Source of the DNA: a virus
Reading direction: 5' to 3' (one strand)
IMG/VR virus record: IMGVR_UViG_3300016665_000824
Span: 64,001-128,000 of that record
DNA length: 64,000 nucleotides
Part shown: piece after piece, positions 1,813 through 47,011 of the stretch
Layout: the number at the start of each line of letters is the position of its first letter
How positions within the stretch are numbered: position 1 is the first letter of the stretch
Made by a program: the position numbers and the translations under genes
The notes under the pieces: model-generated
What the model was told of the DNA's origin: nothing
The model's input: only the letters and a program-made list of their open reading frames with translations
Databases searched by the model: none

Positions 1813-4394
1813 TAGCTCACCCTCCGAAACTTGTCGCGGGTTTCCCAGTAGGCTGCGAGGTAGACTTCCGATGTGGCGATCGCGTCGTTATTGAGTTGAC
1901 TGTCAATGAAGTCGCGTCCCTCCTTCTGCTTTTTCTGGATTTGCTCTTGTTGATAGGCGATCGCTTTTTGTAGTTTTGAGATCTGCTTCTCAGGGGTTAG
2001 TGTTCCAAATCCAGTTATATCTATCCCCATATTGGTTAGTGCTGTTTGAGATGCAGCTAGCGGCTTCTTCCCTGACTGAATTCGAGCAAGGGTCGCCTCT
2101 AAGGTCTTAGTGGTTGCCTCCATCTTGCTGATGTTGTTTTGAAGCGTTTTCAAGTCTATAGGCGGAGTAGCAGTCTTTGATTCAGTACTTGCAGCAGTAT
2201 CCACTGATTTATTTTTACGCGATCGTTTTTGGGTTGCGGTAGTACTGGTTGCAGTACTTACTGATTTACTGCTAGGCGATCGCGTAGAACTTTTTGAAAG
2301 GGGTGGCGCGGCGGAAGACTTAGCTCCGTAGTTTTCGGGATATCGGGCTTTGTTTTCTTGCACCAGTGATTCGTAGTAATCGGCGAATCCGTCTGCCGCT
2401 TCTTTTGCCTGTTCAAGGGAAAAGAAGCGGGTTTTATCTCTGTTCCTACCGCTAAACATATCGGCTAAATCTTCAGGTTCGTGCTCTTCGGTATAAACCA
2501 TCCACCCATCATCTTCTTTTTGGATGGAAATAAAGAGTGATGCGTCTTTGTCTGAAGCCTTTTTTCTTGCGTTGGAGCTGTATCTGTCAGCAGAGTCTGG
2601 ATCTTTAACCCACTCTCCAGCAATAACCTTGTCCAGCTTTTTATTGTATGTTTCTCGTGCTTTCTGTCTTCTCTCTGCGGCTTTCTGTTTTTTGGCAAAC
2701 TCTGCCAGTGTTTTTTCGGCGCTAGATACTAAACTGTTGGACTGACTTGAAGTCAAGTTGTCGGGTTTGCTGCTAGGCGATCGCTCTTGAGGGGTTTCGG
2801 GTTCTGCTTTAGGTGGTTTCGGAGCAACATACTTTTTACCAATCATCGCCTCATGCAGCAGCATTAATTCCTTGGCTTCAGAAGTATCAACACCTAGTGT
2901 CTCGATATCCCTAGCAATGACGGAGGCAAGCTTAGACTTTTGTTCTGGGGTAGCCTTGTCCGCAAACACCTCCTGATCCGACTGAGGAAACTTCTTGGTG
3001 TTTCTCAGCTCGTAAGCCGCATTTATGTTTGCTATCCCATCAACAGCCTTGGAAATCCTAACAGCTTCTTCCTGTGCTATTTCTTTCTTGCTTTTAGGTT
3101 TGACTGGAACATTCGCCTCCTGAGCGATCGCCGCTACTGGCTGGATAACTTCTTCAGTTTTTGGTTTTACCGCCCTGCTGCGACTCTTCTTAGGCTCGCC
3201 CTCTACGGGGTTTTTGGTTGATCTTTCTGTGTTAGGAGTCTCGTCTACCTGAGTTTTTGGAGGCTTAGCCGCTTTCTCTGTCGATCGAGACTTCGCCCGT
3301 GGGTTCTTGATGTTCTCGGCGATCGCCTCTTGAATCTTGTCTTGATTACGAGTAAACCGCATCTCGCCTACACGAATAACTCCTTTCCCATCCCTAAGAT
3401 CGATAGAGTATTGATTTGCACTCTCGGCAAGAGGAGTTCCTTTTTTCTTGTCAATGGCTCCACGAAACTGGATAGAGTCCTCAAGTCCATGTTCTTTAAG
3501 CTTGTCGTATAGTCGCTGCAAATCGACAGACTGTTTTTCGCGAGCAACCTTGTTTACAATACCGTTTCCTGCGCGAGCCTTTACGTCGTCGATACGGACA
3601 TATCCCTCATCATCAGCTAACTCAAGGTTCTGCTTCTTCCTCTCGATCTCTTCTGGGAGGAGTTGCTTACGTTTCAGTTCCGCAGCTAGAGCTAGTTCAT
3701 ACCCCCTCTTTTGGGCGGGGTAATTAACCGAAACTAGCTCCTTCAGGGCTTGAATCTTGGGTTGCTCAGCTTCGTATGCGGACTGGGCTTCTGGAGTTCT
3801 AACCTCTTGAGTCTTCTGCGGTTTTGTTACAGGAGTAGACTCAACCTGTTCAACTATGGGTTCAACCTCTTTAATATCTGTGTTTGCGGGTGGAGTTGAC
3901 TTGTTTGCGATCGCCGCACCAACACCCAATCCAACAGTCGCAGCCGCACCAACACCTACCGCAACATTTCTTGAAGTATTAGAGGGCGGAAGAGTTGGTC
4001 TCTGCCTAACGGGTTCCTGATAAGGTTCACTAGAACGCCCTGCGTTCACCACTGCGCCAGTCAAGGCTAGTCCGCCAACAGCTAATCCCGCACCGATCGC
4101 CGCTTTACTAAGAAAGCCCATCTCAGATTTTGGTGGTTCCTGCGATCGCGCCAATGCTCGCTCTAATTTTGATGGTGGTAGTACATTTACGCCCTGTCCT
4201 TGTGGAGCTTTCCGATAATAAAAACCACCCCTAACACGTCTATCCTGAACGCAAACATAACCTGCCCGTGGAGCGCAAGCATCGTAGCGCAACTTAACTT
4301 CTAGAGCCGCATCAATATACTCTTGAGGCATTACATCAAGAGTAATTTCGTCTAGATACAGACCAGCAAGGTAGTTCTTATCGAGATCTGGCAT
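1812..4394 (-). CDS. large (860 aa) membrane-anchored, low-complexity/coiled-coil protein of unknown function
   Basis: Two Gly/Ala-rich hydrophobic segments near N-terminus, long Lys/Glu/Ser/Thr-rich region; immediately upstream of Mu F-like gene. Confidence 0.55.
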   Translation of the reverse strand: MPDLDKNYLAGLYLDEITLDVMPQEYIDAALEVKLRYDACAPRAGYVCVQDRRVRGGFYYRKAPQGQGVNVLPPSKLERALARSQEPPKSEMGFLSKAAIGAGLAVGGLALTGAVVNAGRSSEPYQEPVRQRPTLPPSNTSRNVAVGVGAAATVGLGVGAAIANKSTPPANTDIKEVEPIVEQVESTPVTKPQKTQEVRTPEAQSAYEAEQPKIQALKELVSVNYPAQKRGYELALAAELKRKQLLPEEIERKKQNLELADDEGYVRIDDVKARAGNGIVNKVAREKQSVDLQRLYDKLKEHGLEDSIQFRGAIDKKKGTPLAESANQYSIDLRDGKGVIRVGEMRFTRNQDKIQEAIAENIKNPRAKSRSTEKAAKPPKTQVDETPNTERSTKNPVEGEPKKSRSRAVKPKTEEVIQPVAAIAQEANVPVKPKSKKEIAQEEAVRISKAVDGIANINAAYELRNTKKFPQSDQEVFADKATPEQKSKLASVIARDIETLGVDTSEAKELMLLHEAMIGKKYVAPKPPKAEPETPQERSPSSKPDNLTSSQSNSLVSSAEKTLAEFAKKQKAAERRQKARETYNKKLDKVIAGEWVKDPDSADRYSSNARKKASDKDASLFISIQKEDDGWMVYTEEHEPEDLADMFSGRNRDKTRFFSLEQAKEAADGFADYYESLVQENKARYPENYGAKSSAAPPLSKSSTRSPSSKSVSTATSTTATQKRSRKNKSVDTAASTESKTATPPIDLKTLQNNISKMEATTKTLEATLARIQSGKKPLAASQTALTNMGIDITGFGTLTPEKQISKLQKAIAYQQEQIQKKQKEGRDFIDSQLNNDAIATSEVYLAAYWETRDKFRRVS

Positions 4395-6593: not shown

Positions 6594-7498
6594 TGATTAT
6601 TGTTAATAATTCCACTAGTGCTGCTGGCATTGGGAAAAACTATTTTAAGAATCCCAATTTTCAAGTAATCCAAGGCACTGCATCAGGGACGCTCGCCAAT
6701 TCCACAGCATTACCCACAGCATCACTAGGATACCTAGGTGAGACTGAATGGGGTATTGCGGCGGCGGGTGGCACTCCTGCTTATGCTTTTAGCTCAGCGA
6801 ATGAATCTGTTACCTTTACGGGTGCAGCATCAACTACCGCTATTTATTTGCTTCAAAGACTTGAAAGCAGAGATATTACTACTCTAGCCAACAAACTGGC
6901 GACAATTACTTTTAGTGCTGAGATATCTAATTCGCTGCTTACTTCGGTAATTTGGGAAGTATTTCGCCCTACTACCACTGCTGACACTCATGGCACAATT
7001 GGCACACCTACGCAGACATTGATTGCTAGTGGAACGTTCACCGTAAACTCAACGCTGACAAAGTATAGCGCCACATTTACCCTTCCTGCATTAGCTGCTA
7101 ATGGACTGGAGGTAAGACTAAGAGTAGGGGCGCAAACTTCTGGAACTTGGGTGGTGTCAAGGTTGCAATTAGAAGAAGGTAGTGTTGCTACTAACTTCAT
7201 TTGTGATGATTATTTGACTGAATTGAATCAATGTCAAAGATACTTTAGAAGATTATCAGATTATCTATATGTTTATTTTGGTACTACTGGTGTATTAAAT
7301 AGTGAACGAATGCATTTAAATATGTTTGGTACTACTAGAATTAGAAATTTAATAGCACAAAATTCAATAGGTGGAACTGGAGTTACTATATCAGCAGGAC
7401 TTAATGAAGATTCAACTAGAGCTAATTATATAAATAATGCTGGAGCTGGTTACTATGGTGGCAATCCATTATATACAGTGTCAGCACACATCCCTTAA
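6593..7498 (+). CDS. tail fibre-like protein
   Basis: 301 aa, S/T/A/G-rich, translationally coupled to upstream fibre-like gene. Confidence 0.45.
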
Positions 7499-9552: not shown

Positions 9553-11208
9553 TTATTTGAGTCGTCCCTCAACCCACATCTTAGCAAAGGGAGAGTCCAA
9601 ATCCTTAAACAACCGAGAAGCAATTTCTACAGCCGAAACGGAATCCTGTTTAACACCTTCTTCGGGAGGTGTATCTGCTTGACCCTGATCTGCACCTTGA
9701 TCGCCAAAGTAGTCGCCACCTTGATCGCCGCCATATCCCTGTAGAGCTGCAAGCTCTTGTTGCTGCTTGGCTAATTCTTCATCCTGCTTCAGTTTTTCCC
9801 ACGCTTCCTTATCGAGAGAGACCTCATAGGAGTACTCTGTTCCACCGTAGAGGCTAGCGCGAACTTCATCCTTAGTAATTGCTCCCGACTGGGTTTGCAG
9901 AGCGATAAGCATATTAGTGTGAGCAGTTTGGTTGGCTACTTCATCTTTGCGACTCTCTACATAGAGGGGTTTAAACTTATAAGACCATCCTTCAGGGATC
10001 TTACCCTTCGTAGGGCCATCTTGAGCGAGCCAAATATACTTGTAAAGCATATCCAACTTGCGGTGGCGATAATTCTGCTCTTGATAGGCAGCAACGGTCT
10101 TTGACCAAACCTGATCTTCGGTTTCTCCAGTACCACCTGCCGCTAACCCTTTTGGTCCACGCCCAAAGATCATTGTGTAAGGAATCCCCACCGCAGCAAC
10201 CAAATCTTCTTGAAAGCTCGCTTTCATGTCGGACAAGCCTTGGTAGTTCCGCACTAGATAAGTAAGGTCATCTTCCGAGTCTACCGACACCGCCCCCAGC
10301 TTCCGCATCTGCATCTTCATGGCGCGAAACTGTTCTGAAAGAATGGTTAAAGCTTTTGGCACTCCATTGGTAGTGGCAGCTCCACCAGCAGCTTTTTCTT
10401 GGGCAAGATTTTGTTTGATCAGGTTTTGCAGGTTCTTCATCTTGTGGAGAAGAATCGTGTGATCTTGAATCATCTCCGCCATTGCGTCGGAGACTTTTGT
10501 GTAGCGAGCAATTTCTTTGAGTGCTGAGACGATTAGCGGATCGCCCCATCCACCCGTCGATCGCAACAATCTTGGAGGTAATCGAGAACCATCAAATCGA
10601 ATAATCCGCGATTTGTGAATTAAGTTGAACGAGGTGTAGTTTGAGCCTAACTTATCTATCTTGGATTTCGATTCTTGGGAGTAAAAGACCTGATAAAAGT
10701 CGGGGTCATCAGAGGGTGCATCAAGGTTTGGGAAATACGGGCGGATATCCTGCGGGTCAAGCTCGTAGATACCCTTGATGGTTTTAATTTTTGCCGTGTT
10801 AACTGGCTCGTTTGGGGGTAGCCCATCATCGATATTGACGAGAATAGCTGCGCCGCCATAAATATTCGCTAGCCAGTCAGCCTTATTAAATTTGTATTTC
10901 GCTTCTATCCTTTCTTCGTACTGTTCAAAGGCTGTGGCAATCTTGCGATCAGTGTCCTTAACTAAGCTAATCTCAGTCCATTTTCTTGTTGCCTCGTCAG
11001 GAAACACCGAGACAATTTTCTTTCCTAGCCAGTCCCTAGATAGTTCTTCGAGGGCTTTGTAGCTTAGTCTGCGCCGATCGCCTGTGCTATTCATCCCCAG
11101 ATCATTCTGAGCGAGCAGGTTGTTGTTGTACTCAGCCTCATAGAGCGCATCGATAATGGCTCCGTCTTGTCTCACATAGACTTCGGGATAATCTGTTTCT
11201 TTGGACAT
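9553..11208 (-). CDS. major virion structural protein (portal or major capsid candidate; not resolvable by eye)
   Basis: 551 aa ORF with Gly/Asp/Gln-rich C-terminal tail; preceded by intrinsic terminator and leader inverted repeat; downstream of a coiled-coil scaffold-like gene. Confidence 0.6.
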   Translation of the reverse strand: MSKETDYPEVYVRQDGAIIDALYEAEYNNNLLAQNDLGMNSTGDRRRLSYKALEELSRDWLGKKIVSVFPDEATRKWTEISLVKDTDRKIATAFEQYEERIEAKYKFNKADWLANIYGGAAILVNIDDGLPPNEPVNTAKIKTIKGIYELDPQDIRPYFPNLDAPSDDPDFYQVFYSQESKSKIDKLGSNYTSFNLIHKSRIIRFDGSRLPPRLLRSTGGWGDPLIVSALKEIARYTKVSDAMAEMIQDHTILLHKMKNLQNLIKQNLAQEKAAGGAATTNGVPKALTILSEQFRAMKMQMRKLGAVSVDSEDDLTYLVRNYQGLSDMKASFQEDLVAAVGIPYTMIFGRGPKGLAAGGTGETEDQVWSKTVAAYQEQNYRHRKLDMLYKYIWLAQDGPTKGKIPEGWSYKFKPLYVESRKDEVANQTAHTNMLIALQTQSGAITKDEVRASLYGGTEYSYEVSLDKEAWEKLKQDEELAKQQQELAALQGYGGDQGGDYFGDQGADQGQADTPPEEGVKQDSVSAVEIASRLFKDLDSPFAKMWVEGRLK

Positions 11209-19901: not shown

Positions 19902-20230
19902 TTAAGAAGCGTCCAGCGATCGGGCGGCTAGTAAGGTTGCCAAGTAAAATCGTCACTGTTGTGGGGTATAAGGATGGGGTTTTTCTAGTCCGCGTCGGCA
20001 CGGGAAAGACTCAGAAAATCACGGAATCGTTTCTTATGGCGCACGGCGTTCTTGTCGAGAAGGAGTGGCGCGAGGAGAAGAAGTCTGCACCCAAACAGGA
20101 ATACGTGAACCGAGAGTTTAAACGCTTCTTTGAGGAGCGAGCCGAAAGGGACTACCAAGAAAAAGTTCTTAAGGGCTTTAAGATTGAGGATGAAGTTATC
20201 GAAGGATTTGAGGCGATCGCGGAGGAATAA
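19898..20230 (+). CDS. hypothetical protein
   Basis: 110 aa; ends in junction repeat GGCGATCGCGGAGGAATAA. Confidence 0.4.
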   Translation: MIKKRPAIGRLVRLPSKIVTVVGYKDGVFLVRVGTGKTQKITESFLMAHGVLVEKEWREEKKSAPKQEYVNREFKRFFEERAERDYQEKVLKGFKIEDEVIEGFEAIAEE

Positions 20231-20233
20231 ATG
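20212..20233 (+). repeat. gene-junction repeat GGCGATCGCGGAGGAATAA + ATG (copy 1)
   Basis: Identical 19-mer at 20419-20437; degenerate third copy at 20682-20703. Confidence 0.7.
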
Positions 20234-20437
20234 GATATCGAAGAACTTGTTGCCGCAGCATCCGTAAGTCGGCATATATATCTTGAGCGCGTCGGCAAAG
20301 GTAGGCTACCAAAAGGATTTCCCTGTGGTGAGCTAATGTGCGTTAATTCGGACGGCAACCGAACTTATTTATTTGATTCGGCGAAAGTCTTAAAGTGGTG
20401 TCGAAAGCAAAATAATCAGGCGATCGCGGAGGAATAA
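20231..20437 (+). CDS. small DNA-binding protein candidate (excisionase/AlpA-like HTH)
   Basis: 68 aa; overall resemblance to excisionase-type HTH proteins; weak. Confidence 0.3.
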   Translation: MDIEELVAAASVSRHIYLERVGKGRLPKGFPCGELMCVNSDGNRTYLFDSAKVLKWCRKQNNQAIAEE

Positions 20438-20439
20438 TG
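20419..20439 (+). repeat. gene-junction repeat GGCGATCGCGGAGGAATAA + ATG (copy 2)
   Basis: Read directly; combines HIP1, GGAGGA, stop TAA and next ATG. Confidence 0.7.
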
Positions 20440-20703
20440 CGAAAAATAGACAAGGACTACAGTTTTACAGAACGAGAGATTCAGGCGTTAATGTTGATAT
20501 GCACTATTGGACGAGAAGACTGGCTCACTAAAGAGGTGAAGGAGATATTGTCGCAATACATAAGCAGAAAGATGTATCACAGGACTGCTTCTCAAGTCTT
20601 TGCTCACAGAAAAAGAGTTCTGGGTTCTTTCCCTAGCAATGCGGGTAAATACTTACTTGAAAGGCGAACTAGCTTTATTGAGCGATCGCGGAGGAGTGAG
20701 TAA
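20437..20703 (+). CDS. hypothetical protein
   Basis: 88 aa; ATG overlaps upstream stop (TAATG). Confidence 0.4.
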   Translation: MRKIDKDYSFTEREIQALMLICTIGREDWLTKEVKEILSQYISRKMYHRTASQVFAHRKRVLGSFPSNAGKYLLERRTSFIERSRRSE

Positions 20704-20710
20704 AAATATA

Positions 20711-20745
20711 AAAAGACGATCCGACGTGAGATCGGATCGTCTTTT
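20711..20745. terminator. bidirectional intrinsic terminator between convergent genes
   Basis: 14-bp perfect stem AAAAGACGATCCGA/TCGGATCGTCTTTT, 7-nt loop; A-run on one side and T-run on the other. Confidence 0.6.
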
Positions 20746-20874
20746 TATATTTTGGTAGGCTGTGAAACAACTAATACAAAAGGGTTTTAGGGTATTGGAA
20801 GGAATTTTGGTAAGGTGTGAATCTCGCTGCTTTTTAATTACGCGAATACACGTAATTCATATTTACCAATACCT

Positions 20875-27220: not shown

Positions 27221-28952
27221 AACTATGAAAGACCCACAACAGATCCAAAGACTCAACGCTCAGATCGAACCTAGCAACGTTGAAGCCGAACAAACGATCA
27301 TTGCGGGGGTTTTTGAAGGTGGAAGCCTTCTTAGCCTAGTCGCCGACGCAATCACACCTGAGATGTTTTTTTCGAGCCTTCTAGGGGCATTTTTTAGGGC
27401 ATCGTTGTTTTTGAGAAATAGCGATCGCGACATAAACACCCTAACCTTAGCCGCCGCGCTACAGGAGATGGGTTTTAAAGACTTTTACGGCTTTGACAGT
27501 ATCTCGGCGCTAGTCCACAACACCTATGCCGACATTATGGGCAGCACGTATATTCAAAGTCCAGCCCACTACGAATCTGCCGCCGCCCTAATCCGTGAAG
27601 CCTCCGTAAGGCGAGACCTGATTAAAGCTGGCAGAGCAGCGATCGCCGCAGCCTACGATCAAGAAATATCTGTGCTTGATGCCTGTACTAAAGCTCAAGA
27701 TTTGATTGGGGATGCTATGACATCATCTCAGGTTCGTAGTACCGTGTTTGAGGTTGGTACAACCTACACAAACATGTGTGCGGAACTTCTCGATCCTCAA
27801 ATTGGAGAGTTCAATCCCGTAATCCCCAGTGGTTATGCGGCGTGGGATGAAATGCTTGAAGGTGGTTTTCGGGGTGCTGAACTCGCGGTTATTGGTGGAG
27901 ACTCGGCGATCGGTAAGTCGATGCTCTTGTTTGGTGCGGCATGGAATATGGCGAAATTCCTTTCGGATCAAGGTAGGGTGGGTTATATCGGCTCGATGGA
28001 AATGTCCACTCGTAGCGTTGTGCATCGCTGGATTGCTTCCGAAGCGCAAGTGGCTTTATCTCGGATGCGTCGCCGAGAATTAAGCGAAGCCGATTGCGAA
28101 AGGATTATGAAGGCATCTAGCGCTGGCGAAATGTTGAATAACCTTGTAATTGACGAGGACAACAAGGCTACTATCCCCCAAATGCTTAACCGAGCCAAAG
28201 AATTTGCACGTAAACATGCTAGAAAATATGGCGGTAGCGGCGAGCTTGGCTTTATGGTTATCGACAACATCAAGATCGCCGAAAAAGGTGGTGACGATTT
28301 CAACTTGGTTAACCGATACCTCAAAGATCTCAAGGGGATTGCAAAGGATTACAACATCCCGATAATCTCTTTGTCTCAGCTAACTAGAGAATCCCTGTTA
28401 AAAAGTTCTGACAAACGCCCTACTGTTGAGGGGTTGTATGGCGGCAAAGCGATTGAAGAAAATGCTGACGACATTTTTGGCTTGTATCGAGGTGTTAAGT
28501 ACGACGATTTCTCTATCCCCACAAACCGAGCTGAGATTATTCGTCTGAAAGGTCGAAACTCAGACCAGTCAAAGGAAAATAGAACGATTTTGCTTGGCTT
28601 CAATGGCGCTCTTTCTACTTTTTACGACCTTGGCGAACCAAAACTAGCCCAAAAATCGGAGCAAAAACAAGCGATCGCCACACCAGTCACCGAAGACATT
28701 AACTACTTCGGCGATCTCGAAGATGGATGTCAAGTTGTTCTGGATATTTCCTACTCAACACCTGAAGAAAAATCGGAGATCAGCGATCGTATCAACGCAA
28801 AGCAGCTACCAAAGCCCAATGAAGTCTGTGGAGTAACCCGCCTAAGCGTTTGCGAAACTCCTGAAGTAGGTAAATTTGGGGTTGCCCACCTAATACTGCC
28901 CGACAACTCCGAAATGAAGGTTGCAGTAGACGAATTGCGCCGAGTCAGTTAG
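27213..28952 (+). CDS. dnaB: replicative DNA helicase, DnaB-like
   Basis: Walker A IGGDSAIGKS, Walker B-like FMVIDNIK, RecA-type core with N-terminal helical domain; C-terminal extension. Confidence 0.65.
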   Translation: MLKTMKDPQQIQRLNAQIEPSNVEAEQTIIAGVFEGGSLLSLVADAITPEMFFSSLLGAFFRASLFLRNSDRDINTLTLAAALQEMGFKDFYGFDSISALVHNTYADIMGSTYIQSPAHYESAAALIREASVRRDLIKAGRAAIAAAYDQEISVLDACTKAQDLIGDAMTSSQVRSTVFEVGTTYTNMCAELLDPQIGEFNPVIPSGYAAWDEMLEGGFRGAELAVIGGDSAIGKSMLLFGAAWNMAKFLSDQGRVGYIGSMEMSTRSVVHRWIASEAQVALSRMRRRELSEADCERIMKASSAGEMLNNLVIDEDNKATIPQMLNRAKEFARKHARKYGGSGELGFMVIDNIKIAEKGGDDFNLVNRYLKDLKGIAKDYNIPIISLSQLTRESLLKSSDKRPTVEGLYGGKAIEENADDIFGLYRGVKYDDFSIPTNRAEIIRLKGRNSDQSKENRTILLGFNGALSTFYDLGEPKLAQKSEQKQAIATPVTEDINYFGDLEDGCQVVLDISYSTPEEKSEISDRINAKQLPKPNEVCGVTRLSVCETPEVGKFGVAHLILPDNSEMKVAVDELRRVS

Positions 28953-28977
28953 TAAAAAGCCCACGAGACCCATTCTT

Positions 28978-29559
28978 GTGGGCAAAAACACACAAAATTA
29001 CAACAAAACTATGCAAGAAGAAATCTCACAACAGGAAATCGCTGCGATCGCAGCCGCAAAACTGAAAAGAATGCAGCGATCGCAACAACAAGAGCCGATA
29101 ACGAAGGTCGAGCCAAAAACTCCAAGTCCCGCACCAGCAAAACAGTCAAAATCAGCAACAAACAGCTACTGGAACAAACCTCAAAGCAGCATCGACATCG
29201 TGAAAAACCCCAAGCACGTTGCCGATATTTACACCATGACCCCGTGGATACCCCAGCCACAGGTAGATGATATCTGCGCGATCGCCGAAAGACCCTACGG
29301 CGACTGGATAGACCTCGAAGCGCAGCATATCGAAGGCAAGTGGGATAGGCAAAGATTCATTGAGTCAGCCTATAACTGGCCTTTCCGCGCCAAGATGCGA
29401 TGTGTTGAAATTTCTGAGGACGGACTGATGGCAACAGTATCCGTCTCAGGAGTCCGCAAACGATTACCACTAGTGTGTTTATGGGAGATGAATGAAATAG
29501 TTGACACTATGACTAATAGTGAGTATGATGAATCTTGGTTTCAGGTAAGACAATTATGA
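28978..29559 (+). CDS. hypothetical protein
   Basis: 193 aa ORF; 3-prime end lies in a duplicated junction segment. Confidence 0.4.
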   Translation: MGKNTQNYNKTMQEEISQQEIAAIAAAKLKRMQRSQQQEPITKVEPKTPSPAPAKQSKSATNSYWNKPQSSIDIVKNPKHVADIYTMTPWIPQPQVDDICAIAERPYGDWIDLEAQHIEGKWDRQRFIESAYNWPFRAKMRCVEISEDGLMATVSVSGVRKRLPLVCLWEMNEIVDTMTNSEYDESWFQVRQL

Positions 29560-29560
29560 C
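29501..29560 (+). repeat. ~60-bp junction segment, copy A
   Basis: About 80 percent identical to 29958-30016 by eye; both end in ...TTTCAGGTAA(G/A)ACAAT(T)ATGAC. Confidence 0.6.
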
Positions 29561-29870
29561 AAAGACTTTAATCTGTAGAGAGATTAAGTGCCTGTATTTC
29601 GACGTTTCAGACCCAATGAGTTCTGGTTGTAAATTCTACGAAAGCGCTCGTCAATGTCACCTACTGTCTGGGATGCTTTCTACTGAAAAGACAGCACTGG
29701 CGACTGACTACGAAATAATTGCTGAAGATTTGTATACGGCTGAAGACCTGATCAGGGTTGAAAACGATTTTTACATTAAATGTTCTGAAAAGTATTTACG
29801 CGATTGTGAGCTTCAGGGGCTTACACCTGAACCCGTAAGAGAAAATGTTCGAGCATGGTTTCGTAGATGA
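29556..29870 (+). CDS. Cys-containing hypothetical protein (ATG at 29556; track start 29535 is TTG)
   Basis: ATG overlaps upstream stop; flanked by two copies of a ~60-bp junction segment. Confidence 0.4.
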   Translation: MTKTLICREIKCLYFDVSDPMSSGCKFYESARQCHLLSGMLSTEKTALATDYEIIAEDLYTAEDLIRVENDFYIKCSEKYLRDCELQGLTPEPVRENVRAWFRR

Positions 29871-29957
29871 CTCCAGCAACTAAAGCAAGATTCACAAATA
29901 GGCGATCGCCTTCTCTGCCTCGTTTTTTAACATTTTGTGGCAGTTAAAAGAAAATGT

Positions 29958-30016
29958 TTGACAGTATGCCTAGTAGTGTGTATGATGGTATTTAGTTTCA
30001 GGTAAAACAATATGAC
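29958..30016 (+). repeat. ~60-bp junction segment, copy B (upstream region of gene 30012)
   Basis: See copy A. Confidence 0.6.
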
Positions 30017-30530
30017 GAATAGCTTGGCTGTGACCTACCAATCGCTCCCACAGAAAGAACAGCTTGAGATACTAGCAGGAGTATCACACCTTATGATAAA
30101 GGTAATGGCAGGTAAAATCCCAACAACAGAAGAGATGGACTTGGCTTCAAAAGCCCAGACCCATCCAAGCCTATTTTTAAAATGCTTCTCTGCCGAACTT
30201 ATGGGAGAGGAGTGGAGACCAAAGCTATTGCCTCAAGGCGGAGAAGGGTATATTATTCGCTGGAAATCCGATGAATACGAAGAGGTAGAGACCGACTCCT
30301 ATCCCTTTAAAAAGAGGGTTTACAAAGAAGAGGGCAATGGACTTGAAATCCAAAGCTACGAGCAGGCGATCGCCAATTGTGAATTTCTAAATAAGCAATA
30401 CCCAGAGAGGACTTACTGGCACTTCTGGGTAAACCAAGACATCCTCAACAACGCAGAAAGCGAGGGTCTTCAACTCATAGACACTGTTGCTCAGCATCTC
30501 TTTGAGGCTCTATCACAGGCTCATGGTTAG
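30012..30530 (+). CDS. hypothetical protein
   Basis: 172 aa ORF. Confidence 0.45.
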   Translation: MTNSLAVTYQSLPQKEQLEILAGVSHLMIKVMAGKIPTTEEMDLASKAQTHPSLFLKCFSAELMGEEWRPKLLPQGGEGYIIRWKSDEYEEVETDSYPFKKRVYKEEGNGLEIQSYEQAIANCEFLNKQYPERTYWHFWVNQDILNNAESEGLQLIDTVAQHLFEALSQAHG

Positions 30531-30533
30531 TTT

Positions 30534-30824
30534 ATGACCCCAGAAACTAGAGCGCGATTCAAAGAATGGGCGATCGCCTACTGGAAGAAAAATCCAAAGT
30601 TACTGAAGCCACCCGATGACTTTCTCACGCAAGGACAGCAGTTGGCGATCGCTATCTACCATGCCATTCCCGCCGATGGGAAGTTTATTAAAGCTGATGC
30701 GATCGCTACTAAGCTCAAACGCAAAACCAGACAAATAGAAGAGATTCTGGGGCTAATCAAAGAGCCGTGGCATCTCAAGTCAAGTAAAAACAACAAGGAA
30801 GGAGGATATACGAGAAATGAGTGA
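30534..30824 (+). CDS. hypothetical protein
   Basis: 96 aa ORF. Confidence 0.4.
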   Translation: MTPETRARFKEWAIAYWKKNPKLLKPPDDFLTQGQQLAIAIYHAIPADGKFIKADAIATKLKRKTRQIEEILGLIKEPWHLKSSKNNKEGGYTRNE

Positions 30825-31089
30825 CACAGTTGGTTTGATTTTTGGTAAGGAAGATAGCAGGACAGAGCAGGAAATCTCTGAGCTTGCGGAGGTCGTAAAA
30901 GCGGCTGGAATTAAGAGAAACCCTGCCATGTTTGCAAGATTTATTTACACACTCGACAAGACAAAAACCTGTCACCCGTCGATTGACCGTGAAGCCTTTC
31001 TGCTAACACTTCAAGAAGTATGGGAAGAGAAGGGACTCCAAGGACTTTCTCTCGCTGAAGAAATATATCAAAGAGGTTTTACAAGATGA
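30817..31089 (+). CDS. hypothetical protein
   Basis: 90 aa ORF, overlapping starts/stops. Confidence 0.4.
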   Translation: MSDTVGLIFGKEDSRTEQEISELAEVVKAAGIKRNPAMFARFIYTLDKTKTCHPSIDREAFLLTLQEVWEEKGLQGLSLAEEIYQRGFTR

Positions 31090-31823
31090 TTGAAAGGCAA
31101 GTTAAACTGCTGGTTCTAGACAAAGACGGTACACTCGTTCGCCCCAAATCTGGCAATACCTTCGTCCAGCACCCCGAAGATCAGGAGCTAATCGAAGGAG
31201 TGGCTGAAGCTATTCAGAGGTATGTTGCTGATGGATGGCAGTTGGCGATCGCGTCAAATCAGGGTGGATGCGAAGTGCGATGGTGTCACCCCGCCGAATT
31301 ACCTGTAGGTAGTTACTGCAATGTAGATAACATTGCCATCAAGGTTGAATACCTTCAAGACACTGGTGAGTTTATACTCGTAAATGGGCATCACCCACTA
31401 CCAAAAACTAGGTTTGCGAAGTTCCAATACAAGACTCTCGGCATAGCGATCGCAGAGATGCAGTATGCGATGAAGCTGATCGGCATTCAGTATCATGGTC
31501 TATTCTGTCCAGACATGCAAGGGAATGAATGCTACATGACTTCGGACTTTGCTGCTCCGCCATTACACAAGGTTGATAGATACAAACACTTAATAGGCTC
31601 GTTCCGTAAGCCCAGTGGTGGAATGTTGCTAGCATTAAAGCAGCACTTTGAAACACATCTTGATGATGTTGATCGGCTGCTCATGATCGGCGATCGTCCC
31701 GAAGATTTGGGATCGGCTCAAGCCGCAGGATTCGATTTTGTGTGGGCAGAAGACTGGCGAAATAACGAACTAGACAAAGTTCTGCCCTACAGGAGCGAAG
31801 AATGGATCGCTCTGAACTCCTAA
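31086..31823 (+). CDS. HAD-superfamily phosphatase
   Basis: N-terminal VLDKDGTL (DxDGT motif I) and C-terminal MIGDRPEDLGSAQAAG (motif IV-like). Confidence 0.5.
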   Translation: MIERQVKLLVLDKDGTLVRPKSGNTFVQHPEDQELIEGVAEAIQRYVADGWQLAIASNQGGCEVRWCHPAELPVGSYCNVDNIAIKVEYLQDTGEFILVNGHHPLPKTRFAKFQYKTLGIAIAEMQYAMKLIGIQYHGLFCPDMQGNECYMTSDFAAPPLHKVDRYKHLIGSFRKPSGGMLLALKQHFETHLDDVDRLLMIGDRPEDLGSAQAAGFDFVWAEDWRNNELDKVLPYRSEEWIALNS

Positions 31824-32101
31824 CTCGCATCCAAGTCCAGCGAATGTGGCTAGAGGACATCCGTGGCAAGTCTCTAGCTCCTCAGTTGGAGATTTGGAAG
31901 AACAAATACCTTGCCGCAAATAATCTCACGCATCTGGATGCTCAGGGGCTGGAGCAACTGCTTAAGGCTCTTGAGTCTATGACTAAGGCTACGGTGAGTA
32001 ACGCCGAGGAATTGGATAGTCAGATGCGCGAGAGGATTAAGAGTGGCGACTACTCGATTCGATTTGTTGAAAAGATTGTTGAAGATGATGAATATTTTTA
32101 G
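31802..32101 (+). CDS. hypothetical protein
   Basis: 99 aa; 3-prime end encoded by junction repeat R1. Confidence 0.4.
   Translation: MDRSELLTRIQVQRMWLEDIRGKSLAPQLEIWKNKYLAANNLTHLDAQGLEQLLKALESMTKATVSNAEELDSQMRERIKSGDYSIRFVEKIVEDDEYF
32074..32100 (+). repeat. junction repeat R1 (GATTGTTGAAGATGATGAATATTTTTA), copy a
   Basis: Identical 27-mer at 32619-32645; both followed by a purine-rich RBS-like GGAGG/AGAGG. Confidence 0.75.
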
Positions 32102-32120
32102 GAGGAGGTAAACCCCAACC

Positions 32121-32336
32121 ATGCGAAACGCCTACTTAACACTTTTTGTGATCAACACCCGTTCAGGACTCGCAGTTAATTATTCAATCAATACCGCAGC
32201 CGACCAGAAGGAGGCTAGAGCCGATGCTCTACTACTCATCGATGAGAGATATCGAGGTCAAAATATTCAGGTTCTAGAAACATCTATTATTCCAAACGAA
32301 GTTATCGATCAGGTTTATGAGTCTCGACACGAGTAA
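32121..32336 (+). CDS. hypothetical small protein
   Basis: 71 aa; GGAGGAGG RBS upstream. Confidence 0.4.
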   Translation: MRNAYLTLFVINTRSGLAVNYSINTAADQKEARADALLLIDERYRGQNIQVLETSIIPNEVIDQVYESRHE

Positions 32337-32340
32337 ACTC

Positions 32341-32384
32341 GATCGCCACTTTTTCAGATCTGAATTACCACAAAAGCACAATGA
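32341..32384 (+). repeat. junction repeat R2 (...AGATCTGAATTACCACAAAAGCACAATGA), copy a
   Basis: 29-bp identical core at 32356-32384 and 33097-33125, flanked by near-identical GATCGNCNCTTTTT. Confidence 0.75.
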
Positions 32385-32614
32385 TTTTAGAGGCCTATTA
32401 TGAAACGTGGGTATCTCGCCCCATTCAAAAGAGAGCTAAAGGTCGAGCCACCTATAGTAAGCCGCAGTGGGAGCATACCTCAGACACAGAAGAAGAGGCG
32501 ATCGCTCACAACAAGATGCTTTCGGCTTACTACCCCGACTGGAAGATTGAAATCAGGGCTGTCGAACAAAAACGAGAATACTGGGATGTCAAGACTGCGG
32601 CAGTTCGAGATTAA
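32381..32614 (+). CDS. hypothetical small protein
   Basis: 77 aa; ATG supplied by junction repeat R2; alternative frame 32400..32627 also open. Confidence 0.35.
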   Translation: MILEAYYETWVSRPIQKRAKGRATYSKPQWEHTSDTEEEAIAHNKMLSAYYPDWKIEIRAVEQKREYWDVKTAAVRD

Positions 32615-32618
32615 AGAA

Positions 32619-32645
32619 GATTGTTGAAGATGATGAATATTTTTA
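32619..32645 (+). repeat. junction repeat R1, copy b
   Basis: See copy a. Confidence 0.75.
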
Positions 32646-32655
32646 AGAGGTTAAT

Positions 32656-33147
32656 ATGGCAAGTGTCAAGCATTATTTAAGTTGCCCAGCTAAGCCCTAC
32701 GAAGAAGGGATACCCTTATACTCCGATCGCCTGAGAGAATGGTTTCACGATATCGGTGATGTCTGGGAATACTACGAAGATCAGATCGGAGAAGATGAGG
32801 ATATTGATCTTGAATGGGCGGAAGCCAAGCAATCGCCTCAAGGTATTTGTGAAATGGCTCGTCTTTTCTTAGGTAGACCAGTTTATTTGCCGTGGGCTGA
32901 GATTCCTGAATTTGATCTACCTGATGGTGTTGACGATATCTCGGAAATACTGCCGCCAAGCCACGAGATCAACATAAAACTTGCCGAGTTAAACAAGCTT
33001 ATCGAAGAAACAAAGCTGGTTGTTTGCTACGAGGAGTCTAGCTACCGCCCAGATCCAGAAACCTTGGACTTTAAGTGCGCGATCGTCGCTTTTTTTAGAT
33101 CTGAATTACCACAAAAGCACAATGAAAGCTCGACAGTTCGAGATTAA
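32656..33147 (+). CDS. hypothetical acidic protein
   Basis: 163 aa; C-terminal codons lie in second copy of repeat R2. Confidence 0.4.
   Translation: MASVKHYLSCPAKPYEEGIPLYSDRLREWFHDIGDVWEYYEDQIGEDEDIDLEWAEAKQSPQGICEMARLFLGRPVYLPWAEIPEFDLPDGVDDISEILPPSHEINIKLAELNKLIEETKLVVCYEESSYRPDPETLDFKCAIVAFFRSELPQKHNESSTVRD
33081..33125 (+). repeat. junction repeat R2, copy b
   Basis: See copy a; supplies C-terminal codons of gene 32656..33147 and the ATG of gene 33122..33376. Confidence 0.75.
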
Positions 33148-33376
33148 ATTTAGAAACCATCCAGAGTGCGATCGCCTAGTCGAAGCCACCAGTCATGCCA
33201 AAGCCAAGATGAAGCTCGCCTACGAGTTGGTTGAGGCGGGAGTATTTAATACTTTTGGAGAGGCTTTACTGGCGATCGCCACCTGCCGAGTCTTACAGCC
33301 AATGAAGCGAGGGAAACCCGAAGGGTGGTATCGGGTGAACCCTAAACGAAAAACAACAAGGAACAAAAAGCAGTGA
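33122..33376 (+). CDS. hypothetical small basic protein
   Basis: Internal ATG at 33122 (supplied by R2 copy) inside track ORF 33020..33376. Confidence 0.35.
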   Translation: MKARQFEIKFRNHPECDRLVEATSHAKAKMKLAYELVEAGVFNTFGEALLAIATCRVLQPMKRGKPEGWYRVNPKRKTTRNKKQ

Positions 33377-33939
33377 TTGACAAAACAAGATTAGAAATAG
33401 CGAACAAGGTCTTAGCAGTACTCAGTGAGTCTTATCGTAAGACTGAGTTTGTAGTTAGCGATCGCAACCGACTTTACCTGAACTGGTTCGATTATTACGG
33501 CAAGGCATATAGTCGTCCTTGGGCAACAAGATGTGGCTCGGCGTATCCAAGCTGGAGCGACAAACTGTCTTGCGGCGGCACGATGATGACGGCGATCGCG
33601 CAGTTGGCTTTATGGGTTCGCGGATTGCCTTGCTACCCCATTCAGACTTGGGAGTATTGGTGCGGAGAGACGGTTGGAATGAGAGGTGGGGAGAAAATTC
33701 TTCCACTCTTAAGGGACAGTGGCTGTTATCCCGATGGACTTAGTTGTGCTTTTTGTGGGGCTAGGGATGTCGAGAGGGATTGGTATTGGTTCTCGCCTCA
33801 CCCTAAGCACTCTGGGTTTGGATGCCAGCGCCCAGAATGCCAGCCAATTATAGATCTTAGGAATAGTTTGGACGTAAAACAACAAAATCGCGTCAAAAGA
33901 ATTTTATCCTCGCAACGTATCCCTGCTTCCGTAAAATAG
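33373..33939 (+). CDS. Cys/Trp-rich hypothetical protein (possible metal-binding)
   Basis: 188 aa with 12 Cys and many Trp/Tyr. Confidence 0.4.
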   Translation: MIDKTRLEIANKVLAVLSESYRKTEFVVSDRNRLYLNWFDYYGKAYSRPWATRCGSAYPSWSDKLSCGGTMMTAIAQLALWVRGLPCYPIQTWEYWCGETVGMRGGEKILPLLRDSGCYPDGLSCAFCGARDVERDWYWFSPHPKHSGFGCQRPECQPIIDLRNSLDVKQQNRVKRILSSQRIPASVK

Positions 33940-45160: not shown

Positions 45161-45386
45161 AGAAGATGCTGAAGAATGCTTAGCTAAAAATCTAAAGGTT
45201 GTAACGCGCTATGGGCTAGGCGAAATTATTTCGATCGCCAAGAAAAGCGACCCAGTACAATGGGCAGAGATAAAACAACTTGACCGCGATCGCCAGTTTG
45301 AAGTACCCAGATGTCTATACCTATCGAGCATCAGCAGATATACTGCTGTTTTGGTTGAGCAAAGTGAAGTAGAAAGTATTTTTTAA
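45153..45386 (+). CDS. hypothetical small protein (start at ATG 45153 after GGAGGG)
   Basis: Internal ATG of track ORF 44979..45386 with RBS. Confidence 0.35.
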   Translation: MTREDAEECLAKNLKVVTRYGLGEIISIAKKSDPVQWAEIKQLDRDRQFEVPRCLYLSSISRYTAVLVEQSEVESIF

Positions 45387-47011
45387 TATCCCGATCGCCA
45401 CACGATATCCATCAGAGTTTCCCTACCAGCGAAAGCAATAACACAAGCGTCACTACAATTAGGCGATCGCCCCAATCTACGAATAGTTTTAGAAGCCTTA
45501 TCCTCAATGCGTAACTTCGCGTTGGGGGTTTCTTCGTAGTAGACGTTACTAAAGTCCGTCATCAGATATTCTTCCTCCTCTAGTGGTGCGATCGCCGATA
45601 TATCGTCATTGCCATCGGCAGCAGCAAAGAATTCACGCAGTTTCCAATACCATTGAGCCTTCCAGTTCATATATAGCTGATCGAAGTCTTGGTTGGCATC
45701 TTCTTCTACCGCATCACCAAAGTTAGCTGCCCATACTTGCGCTCCCCATCCGCGATCGAGCAAGTAAGCTAATGTACCCGAACCAACACCCGTGGCATCT
45801 ATACCCACTTTACAGTTAGGATAGACGCGCAGATATTCTTCCTCAATGATTTGGGCAATACGAATAACGTCTTTGCGATCGCCTACACAGGGGATAACCC
45901 TCGCGATCTTAAGCACATTACCTTGAAACCCACAAATAGCATGGTCATCACTCATGGAGCCGACATCTACACCAAAACTCCAAGGTGTATTGACATTGAT
46001 AATTGTTTCCCACAGATCGGGATTGAGATCGTATCTTGCCCGTGCCGCAACAAAGTAGCTCTTGGGAAGTATAGACGCGCCACCCGATTCCGAGAACAAG
46101 CCCTCAATACGAGTCAGCCAGAAAGGTGAGTTTTCACCCTTCTTGATACGCATCCTTTCAATCCATGCGATCGAGATAGCACCCTTGATTACATCTCTGG
46201 GTAAGTCAGCATCCCATTCGGATTGAGGTTTGATTGGCTCGTCGCGAGAGTTGGGGTCATTAGGCGATCGCTTAATCTTTGCCTCGACCTCTGGTTTAAG
46301 TCGGTGCATCCCATCAAGATGCAGGTCGTAAGCCCATTCAACATTTGGGTGCTGCCATGCACTGCATCTGATATGGCTGAGGTTGCAAGCAGTATAGAAA
46401 GGGGAGTCACATCTGGTTGGGTTGCCAATACGAAGAATCTTATTTTGTTCCCCTGTAAGACAGCTTTCTAGGGAGGTATCTACGGCAGGACTGATACCAC
46501 AGGCTTCATCTTCAATAATAAGCATTCGTTCTGAGTGGATACCCTGCGCTGCCGAATCATTATGGTCACTACTGGAAAAGCCGTATGCCTCAACCCCTTC
46601 TTCGAGGAATACCCGCAGCTCATTTCTCTTGCCGCCGAGCTTCTTCTTGTGTTTGTCGTATAGACGACGGACAACGCCCCAAAGCAACTTAGTAACCTGT
46701 CGGTGAGTTGGTGCGGTAGAGATAACAAGCGATCGCACAGCAAATACCGCCCAGAGGACTAACCACCCACTCAAGTATGTCTTGCCTAAACCGTGGCAGG
46801 CGGCAACATTGGTAACACGCTTGTTCTTGACCGATTCAAGAATGGTGATCTGTTGTCCCGTGATAACAATATCGGGTTCAAGGTATCGAATAAATCCTTC
46901 GGGGTCGTCGGCAAATCGGGTTAAGTCTTCACCGATCGCCACATCCCCCTCATTACCTGATACCAGCTTAATCTGCGTATTACAGCTCGTCTTCAGTCTC
47001 GCAAAGCCCAC
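45383..47011 (-). CDS. terL: terminase large subunit
   Basis: Walker A-like ACHGLGKT, Walker B-like LIIEDEA; 542 aa. Confidence 0.75.
   Translation of the reverse strand: MGFARLKTSCNTQIKLVSGNEGDVAIGEDLTRFADDPEGFIRYLEPDIVITGQQITILESVKNKRVTNVAACHGLGKTYLSGWLVLWAVFAVRSLVISTAPTHRQVTKLLWGVVRRLYDKHKKKLGGKRNELRVFLEEGVEAYGFSSSDHNDSAAQGIHSERMLIIEDEACGISPAVDTSLESCLTGEQNKILRIGNPTRCDSPFYTACNLSHIRCSAWQHPNVEWAYDLHLDGMHRLKPEVEAKIKRSPNDPNSRDEPIKPQSEWDADLPRDVIKGAISIAWIERMRIKKGENSPFWLTRIEGLFSESGGASILPKSYFVAARARYDLNPDLWETIINVNTPWSFGVDVGSMSDDHAICGFQGNVLKIARVIPCVGDRKDVIRIAQIIEEEYLRVYPNCKVGIDATGVGSGTLAYLLDRGWGAQVWAANFGDAVEEDANQDFDQLYMNWKAQWYWKLREFFAAADGNDDISAIAPLEEEEYLMTDFSNVYYEETPNAKLRIEDKASKTIRRLGRSPNCSDACVIAFAGRETLMDIVWRSGY

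Follow-up and report, generated by a model that had tools for sequence, protein, structure and literature searches.

The repeated segment that flanks the 104-aa gene g104 in the window (the whole 64-kb stretch of viral DNA analysed here, 64,000 nucleotides) is probably a sigma-70-type promoter, named J, that heads a variable gene slot; we propose that its two copies, J_A and J_B, arose when two versions of this slot were stacked by out-of-register recombination of two genomes. The resulting order is g193, J_A, g104, a 5' relic of g96, a 3' relic of g193 that carries J_B, g172 and g96, all on the + strand. The locus offers a reconstructable case in which a phage would have gained an ORFan while expression of the genes behind it was kept, and in which relics of both core genes still mark the joint.

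The window is called as phage on matches that include a portal protein (9553-11208, - strand) and a large terminase (45383-47011, - strand), and further phage matches comprise a DNA polymerase processivity factor (clamp) and endolysin/peptidase families. It forms part of a 134-kb ENA metagenome contig and contains 185 copies of the HIP1 octamer (GCGATCGC) in 64 kb, which indicates a cyanobacterial host; its sequence features point to an uncultivated HIP1-rich cyanophage. Relatives at the DNA level were not found among cultured phages and plasmids, the best match of the DnaB protein of the window is only ~28% identical, and a search of 185,579 reference genomes gave no relative of the g193 family. 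The locus lies in a long co-directional array that encodes a T5orf172 protein, a DnaD-like initiator, DnaB, g193 and many small ORFs, followed by a PNK3P/HAD phosphatase, a methylase, a dCMP deaminase and ThyX. The conserved gene g193 (29011-29559, + strand) is located 3' of DnaB and holds copy A of the repeat in its last ~20 codons. An earlier note on this DNA had started the gene at the GTG at 28978; the ATG at 29011 is most likely instead, as the g193 homologues (n = 12, 63-100% identity) start at the equivalent ATG and begin with MQEEISQ or MSEEISQ. No match to g193 was found in Pfam or PHROG. The contigs with g193 homologues yielded nine further distinct locus versions, ten with the window; viral contigs added two loci, both duplicates of loci already in the set, and metagenome contigs only two more, which are of the L004 type.

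The ~60-bp repeat described in the earlier note was upheld: segments 29495-29554 and 29952-30011 are 80% identical over 60 nt without gaps and lie 457 nt apart. The limits given by MAFFT and BLAST are longer, namely 29478-29563 for copy A (J_A) and 29934-30019 for copy B (J_B), both on the + strand, with 77% identity over 87 columns, two 1-nt indels and a BLAST E-value against the window of about 1e-10 to 6e-10. Both copies indeed share the ending GTTTCAGGTAA(G/A)ACAAT(T)ATGAC, both downstream ORFs start with M-T, and exact matches to GTTTCAGGTAA occur in the 64 kb at these two places only. The likeness extends beyond a short AT-rich ribosome-binding region, since a -35/spacer/-10 unit and ~24 nt upstream of it are also shared. 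The 104-aa gene does lie between the copies; however, it does not lie exactly between them, as had been stated, because its stop and copy B are 63 nt apart (29871-29933). The independent Logan assembly L002 equals the window over 29422-30540 except for two substitutions, and the identical arrangement shows that the repeat is not an assembly artefact. In a tiling of the window, the top three short-range direct repeats of the 64 kb all fell within 29.5-33.1 kb; thus, the junction repeat belongs to a local pattern.

Bacterial promoters of the sigma-70 type (group 1 sigma) combine a TTGACA-like -35 hexamer with a TATAAT-like -10 hexamer 16-18 nt away, and transcription begins 6-8 nt 3' of the -10 hexamer. 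In J_A, the -35 hexamer TTGACA (29501-29506), a 17-nt spacer and the -10 hexamer TATGAT (29524-29529) are followed by a predicted transcription start at ~29536-29538, an SD-like box AGGTAA (29543-29548) and the ATG at 29556; in J_B, the corresponding elements are TTGACA (29958-29963), TATGAT (29981-29986), AGGTAA (30000-30005) and the ATG at 30012. The AGGTAA box, which agrees with the Shine-Dalgarno consensus core AGGTGA at 5/6 positions, lies ~14 nt past the -10 hexamer, with the ATG 6-7 nt further on. Both copies thus have sigma-70 hexamers (11/12 positions) at a spacing of 17 nt. No other sigma-70-like site on the + strand of the 64 kb scores as high (one further 11/12 site is found at 7237 on the - strand), and the two copies are the sole matches in the 64 kb to TTGACA-N17-TATGAT with at most one mismatch. 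As hexamers, leader, SD-like box and ATG occur in each copy, the repeated unit is read as a putative promoter with a short leader, a ribosome-binding site and a start codon. This near-consensus promoter and leader, kept in every relative, had been overlooked in the earlier note.

The consensus of J across the loci is GTTGACA, 17 nt, TAT(G/C)AT, then TAG-TTTC(A/G)GG in most versions, and then ATG. The hexamers and the 17-nt spacing are kept at orthologous positions in 10/10 distinct g193 homologues, and the synonymous third positions within the hexamers are invariant (4/4, versus 6/31 upstream; Fisher p = 0.004, or p = 0.04 with the L002 variant counted); in copy A of L002, a synonymous change weakens the -35 hexamer to TTGATA. 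Part of the hexamer conservation acts at the protein level, because conserved V-D and Y-D codons overlap the hexamers. Coding conservation might even be the whole explanation, in which case TTGACA and TATGAT would be by-products of the V-D-T and Y-D codons at the C-terminus of g193, J would have no promoter role and copy B would represent a recent pseudogene fragment devoid of function. Such a reading agrees with the invariance of V164 and D165 in the protein alignment and with the tolerated TTGATA of L002. However, neither the sequence nor the length of the tail after V-D is constant. The ORF of L004 and L022 stops at VDI*, which leaves the spacer and the -10 hexamer untranslated; the 17-nt spacing and a TANNNT -10 hexamer nevertheless persist. 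Copy B is also hard to reconcile with it: the whole element is non-coding there, with perfect hexamers, and its promoter and leader match those of L027 at 49/56 and those of L023 at 48/56 positions (86-88%), whereas the relic upstream of the -35 hexamer has decayed to 13-19/31 (~55%) against the relatives. As the hexamers, moreover, outrank every other sigma-70-like match on the + strand of the window, we consider coding conservation alone an unlikely explanation. Intact hexamers and leader of J_B beside a decayed upstream relic are what selection on a promoter function would predict, and we infer that J is a putative functional promoter, taking its conservation as good though indirect evidence.

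Additional regulatory or structural features of J were sought with the following results. A conserved hairpin or operator in the spacer was rejected: palindromes are present in copy A (CACTAT-N5-ATAGTG), L003 (ACACGC-N5-GCGTGT) and L013 (CACTA-N7-TAGTG), but these are not centred on corresponding positions, the other relatives are without them and the folds are no better than those of shuffles. RNA folds of both copies and of 29862-29960 did not go beyond shuffles (z from -0.91 to +0.79). The promoter-like units form a tandem on the same strand with neither terminator nor significant structure between them; in particular, a + strand scan found no terminator from g104 to copy B, where the RNA fold of 29862-29960 is not significant (z = +0.58). 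In 28500-33500, known RNA families gave nothing but sub-threshold, chance-level snoRNA matches. A relaxed promoter/leader pattern had 15 matches in genome contigs, all in unrelated Firmicutes/Nitrospirota MAGs and taken as chance, and the exact A/B consensus pattern had no match in viral contigs.

The content of the region behind J was compared across the loci by tblastn and ORF clustering. The full J element is single in 9/9 other distinct relatives, where it occupies the 3' end of the g193 homologue, and the region behind it is closed by the conserved gene g96 (30534-30824, + strand) in 9/10 distinct lineages, the short L027 contig being the one that does not show g96. Between J and g96, L004 is empty, L016 has 35-aa and 33-aa ORFs, and L023, L022 and L024 have a 54-aa, an 81-aa and an 87-aa ORF, respectively; in L003, a g172 homologue directly follows the single J, and in L027 a g104 homologue does so. 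As nearly every lineage has a gene content of its own, J heads a hypervariable cargo slot. A conserved internal promoter, albeit putative, and a hypervariable slot are thereby defined in an uncultivated freshwater cyanophage group, and the slot is a natural place to seek host-takeover or anti-defence genes, for example the Cys-rich g104 family. The arrangement with two copies is not shared by the relatives at large: a pattern scan of all loci detected two full -35/-10 units in the window and L002 only, the best self-match of J in the next 3.5 kb scores no more than 25 in five other representative loci versus 73 in the window, and in L025 and L026 just the final ~16 nt (leader) occur a second time. 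The comparison with relatives lacking the 104-aa gene, as suggested in the earlier note, gave a clear result in L003, where the g193 homologue is followed directly by the g172 homologue with one junction. Thus, the idea of an insertion holds to the extent that g104 was added with respect to other members of the group and that the second junction is tied to this addition, as L003 has one J and is without g104.

The proposed mechanism of that insertion, recombination between the two junction copies, does not agree with the structure of the joint. The apparently intergenic stretch after g104 comprises 141 nt and holds two gene relics with 19 nt between them. The first is a 48-nt 5' relic of g96 (29867-29914, + strand) with a 1-nt deletion and a TGG to TAG change, which ends a few nt past a HIP1 site; its ATG shares nucleotides with the TGA of g104, in the way that slot genes adjoin g96 in other loci. 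Its identity to the g96 start is 89% in L024 (3209-3254) and 87% in L016 (3024-3075), and further alignments were obtained with L013, L023, L025 and the g96 of the window itself (30534). A T-rich filler at the novel joint (29915-29933, + strand), which has no significant match in the window or the relatives, leads to the second relic, a g193-type 3' end that carries J_B (29934-29995, + strand). This relic reads ..SSVYDGI*, and its TAG (29993-29995), taken as ancestral, is at the same place as the stop in 6/9 other relatives; its left edge is fuzzy, with ~15/24 positions matching upstream of the -35 hexamer (binomial p about 0.001-0.005). In the g193 gene itself, the stop in the window is changed from TAG to TGG and the ORF is 6-7 codons longer than in the relatives, so that g193 now reads through the leader of copy A and ends in an ATGA that overlaps the start of g104. 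Since the joint thus falls between a 5' end of g96 and a 3' end of g193, the breakpoints lie outside the repeat, and the repeat is therefore a by-product of the stacking and not the recombination substrate; the two copies, in addition, are not each other's closest relatives. A repeat that flanks an insertion, as the locus teaches, need not be the substrate of the recombination.

Both single-cargo arrangements exist with one J each, as is evident from L003 (J-g172-g96) and L027 (J-g104 homologue), although the exact parents were not found among the relatives: the g104 protein of L027 is 34% identical and the g172 protein of L003 63% identical to those of the window. The two-parent origin and the direction of events are inferred from these comparisons as follows. 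The first parent would have had the order g193-J-g104-g96 and the second g193-J-g172-g96, and an out-of-register crossover would have joined the first parent, at about nt 50 of g96, to the second parent, about 25-70 nt short of the end of its g193. The repeat would then be one promoter and leader drawn from two parental lineages. In the product, J_A would drive g104, whose translation may in addition be coupled to that of g193 via the ATGA overlap, while g172 and the later genes would keep their own promoter, leader and ribosome-binding site in J_B and would also receive read-through transcription. The direct repeats could later delete g104 by homologous recombination.

An in-situ tandem duplication of the segment from the 3' end of g193 through J and the cargo to the 5' end of g96, followed by replacement of one cargo and its flanks from another phage, would yield an identical joint of g96 and g193 relics, and the conserved anchors J and g96 with many cargos between them could support such a later replacement. 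Two events would be needed instead of one, though, and g104 and g172 are unrelated. Furthermore, J_B matches J_A at 46/57 positions, versus 49/56 for L027 and 48/56 for L023, and the g96 relic scores 76 against L024 and 74 against L016 versus 64 against the window's own g96. Both duplicated flanks are therefore nearer to other lineages than to the partner copy, which favours two co-infecting genomes over the duplication, by a small margin that reflects short sequences and differences of 3-4 positions. In-situ duplication is accordingly held to be a rather unlikely origin of the two copies, and recombination of two genomes is preferred.

PeSLs (promoter-early stem-loops) are regulatory cassettes of T4-type phages (Arbiol et al., 2010, PMC2839356; Comeau et al., 2014, PMC4122927). 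In the RB49/phi1 case, one phage has an ORFan with a promoter motif on either side, and its relative has just one motif between the same neighbours (PMC2839356). The locus in the window resembles these systems in several respects: a sigma-70-like promoter, an SD box and a start codon directly precede the ORFan-like g104 in a hyperplastic region, the ORFan is flanked by two copies where a relative without it has one, and the repeats could mediate deletion and re-insertion. A PeSL-like shuffling, in which g104 was inserted by homologous recombination between J copies, for example as a mini-circle of g104 and one J entering a resident J, would thus reproduce the topology of the window and L003 known from RB49/phi1, and J, as the one well-conserved block of ~60-110 nt beside a variable region, is a plausible substrate for homeologous cargo exchange. 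We nevertheless regard it as improbable, since a 5' relic of g96 separates g104 from J_B, J_B itself lies inside a 3' relic of g193, neither copy looks chimeric, and the sole other context of the g104 family has no J after the gene. J also differs from PeSLs in its own properties: it is without a stem-loop or terminator component, it has just 2 copies in 64 kb and is single in the other relatives whereas PeSLs are dispersed with ~50 per genome, its copy A lies within a coding region, and the joint, at which both flanking core genes have left relics, does not fall within the repeat. As J has no stem-loop, is not multicopy or dispersed and has the breakpoints outside the motif, it is not a PeSL. 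Finally, that two AT-rich ribosome-binding regions are alike merely by chance, for which nothing speaks beyond the AT-rich leader, can be dismissed on the basis of alignments, shuffles and relatives: the local score of copy A against copy B is 73 as opposed to a mean of 21.2 (sd 2.2, max 29) in 300 first-order shuffles of the 3.5 kb downstream, the likeness covers 86 nt, of which 57 nt are promoter and leader, and orthologous copies are present in all relatives.

The preferred origin, recombination of two genomes out of register, is classic phage mosaicism by illegitimate or unequal recombination and involves no new mechanism. Phage mosaicism is attributed to illegitimate or homeologous recombination followed by selection (PMC2327257, PMC3029335), and the locus shares with it a novel joint of non-homologous positions in two related genomes, truncated gene remnants at the boundary and neighbouring segments with different nearest relatives. 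It differs in that the unequal exchange doubled a regulatory junction and placed two alternative cargos of a single slot in series, and in that the same type of scar is seen in at least three lineages of this group. Morons (PMC2629481) provide another comparison: the two neighbours of g104 adjoin each other in L003, and g104 would fit the core moron definition, albeit without the terminator, as none was found between g104 and g172. A promoter-like element does precede g104, and its GC content is lower by a modest margin (41% vs 46%). Unlike in a moron, the promoter of g104 is a second copy of the resident slot promoter and not a foreign one, and the site is a recurrent variable slot, not that of a one-off insertion. 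The locus extends the moron, PeSL and mosaicism picture to cyanophages.

The cargo of the first slot unit, g104 (29556-29870, + strand), is a small Cys-rich accessory gene with the family-wide motif [IV]CxxIxCxY..GCxxYxxAxxCHL, which suggests metal binding by the predicted protein. Among 5.8e9 clustered proteins, g104 retrieved itself only, and 1.84e9 representatives contained five weak-to-moderate relatives, so that the family is rare. Its homologue in L027 (814-1137; 34% identity, E 1e-12) conserves the Cys motif. No match to g104 was found in Pfam or PHROG, and its single-sequence AlphaFold model has a pLDDT of 43.6, too low for use. The GC content of g104 is 41.0%, versus 47.2% and 45.3% in the neighbours and 45.8% in the region, a modest gap over 315 nt. 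The cargo of the second slot unit, g172 (30012-30530, + strand), has a 169-aa homologue, P0003, behind the single junction copy of L003 (63% identity, 99% coverage), which supports the start at 30012 assumed in the earlier note, one public gene call having 30093; no relative of g172 was found in viral contigs. Descent of g104 and g172 from a common gene as diverged paralogues was rejected, as they have no similarity (E 0.10).

Scars similar to that in the window were identified elsewhere. In L025 and L026, the order is J, a 50-aa ORF, a 5' relic of g96, a leader relic (~16 nt), an 87-aa gene and g96, and the right-hand breakpoint differs from that in the window; L024 represents the unstacked form of this arrangement. 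In L013, a 5' relic of g96 (3098-3129) is fused to a truncated gene of the 87-aa family. In another case, window positions 32617-32650 hold, before g163, a 97% copy of the 3' end of g99 together with a Shine-Dalgarno box, and g99 and g163 are adjacent in L004. The scars in L025/L026, L013 and window 32617-32650 show that cargo units have been stacked repeatedly in this phage group.

In the three g96 relics (window 29867-29914, L025 1577-1623 and L013 3098-3129), the detectable homology ends 0-30 nt past the same HIP1 octamer. Older reports, as summarised in PMC4390886, link HIP1 to site-specific and illegitimate recombination. If the events were independent, the stacking could be targeted and not random, with HIP1 sites serving as recombination hot spots that shuffle phage genes, which would give HIP1 a testable role; we give this lead, which rests on three cases, a low probability. 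The three lineages with a scar at HIP1 share one type of g193 C-terminus and may therefore have inherited the joint from a common ancestor. No stretch is better conserved than the HIP1 blocks, which skews the apparent end points of the homology, and the relic of L025 may run past the HIP1 site in an L022-like variant. An exchange between two HIP1 sites as the origin of the joint was set aside and left as a weak lead, as no HIP1 site is present at the corresponding place in any 3' end of g193. Another duplicated junction in the window, at 32340 and 33080, begins at a HIP1-like site.

A second junction in the window repeats in the same manner as the one flanking g104, the Cys-rich small accessory gene (29556..29870). 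Segments 32072-32105 and 32617-32650 are 97% identical; the first comprises the 3'-terminal ~30 nt of gene g99 (31802..32101) together with a Shine-Dalgarno box, and its second copy forms the non-coding leader of gene g163 (32656..33147). In the related phage locus L004 (5489-5540), g99 adjoins g163 directly with this same junction. Because the two genes are adjacent there and the g99 3' end recurs before g163 in the window, the two intervening genes, 32121..32336 and 32381..32614, look stacked in, that is, joined in tandem by out-of-register recombination, in the same type of event as proposed for g104. The same region holds two copies of a 46-nt leader, CTTTTTCAGATCTGAATTACCACAAAAGCACAATGA, at 32340-32384 and 33080-33125. 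Both start at a HIP1-like site, and the genes they precede, one with its ATG at 32381 and the other at 33122, are unrelated; L004, L013, L016 and L023 have one copy of the leader each. The final 15 nt of gene 32381..32614 (32598-32612) are identical to nucleotides 13-27 (33134-33148) of the gene whose ATG is at 33122, a further small relic.

The near-identical locus L002 matches window positions 29422-30540 at all but two sites, 29505 and 30443, the former being a synonymous C>T change in L002 that converts the -35 box of copy A, the upstream copy of the promoter-like element, to TTGATA. Window positions 29166-29421 are separated from L002 positions 3398-3660 by many scattered substitutions and indels, and further upstream L002 is unrelated to the window. 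This succession places a separate recombination boundary inside g193, the gene downstream of DnaB (29011..29559). Homing-endonuclease-like genes vary in presence around this module (L023 1482-2382, L004 603-1994, L002 2419-3393). In L023, a PNK3P/HAD phosphatase gene is interrupted by an HNH_3 gene; the L004 type has an HNH gene upstream of DnaB, at the place that T5orf172 and a DnaD-like gene occupy in the window; and L002, L024 and L025 encode a CoiA-like nuclease between DnaB and a shortened g193.

Relics of the 5' end of g96, the conserved gene closing the variable slot, occur in three lineages (window 29867-29914, L025 1577-1623, and L013 3098-3129), and the detectable homology of all three ends 0-30 nt past the same HIP1 octamer. 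This shared end could mark a breakpoint associated with HIP1; it could also stem from a joint inherited from a common ancestor, or from alignment bias.

In L004-type phages (L004 4485-4524), g193 ends at VDI* and the -10 box is TATCAT; since the ATG of the next gene lies just 8 nt past this box, a transcript from this putative promoter would be leaderless or nearly so. For g172, one public gene call starts at 30093 (145 aa) versus 30012 (172 aa). The longer ORF, immediately after copy B, is the better model, as the L003 homologue aligns from residue 1 and has a GTG start at the equivalent of 30012.

Elsewhere in the window, an ~18-nt junction, GCGATCGCGGAGGA(A/G)T(A/G)A, ends three consecutive small genes (20213-20232, 20420-20438, and 20682-20700). 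In this junction HIP1 occurs together with a Shine-Dalgarno box and with a stop that overlaps the ATG of the next gene. After the third copy, at 20703-20753, comes a near-perfect palindrome of 51 nt that is bordered by A/T runs and looks like a bidirectional terminator.
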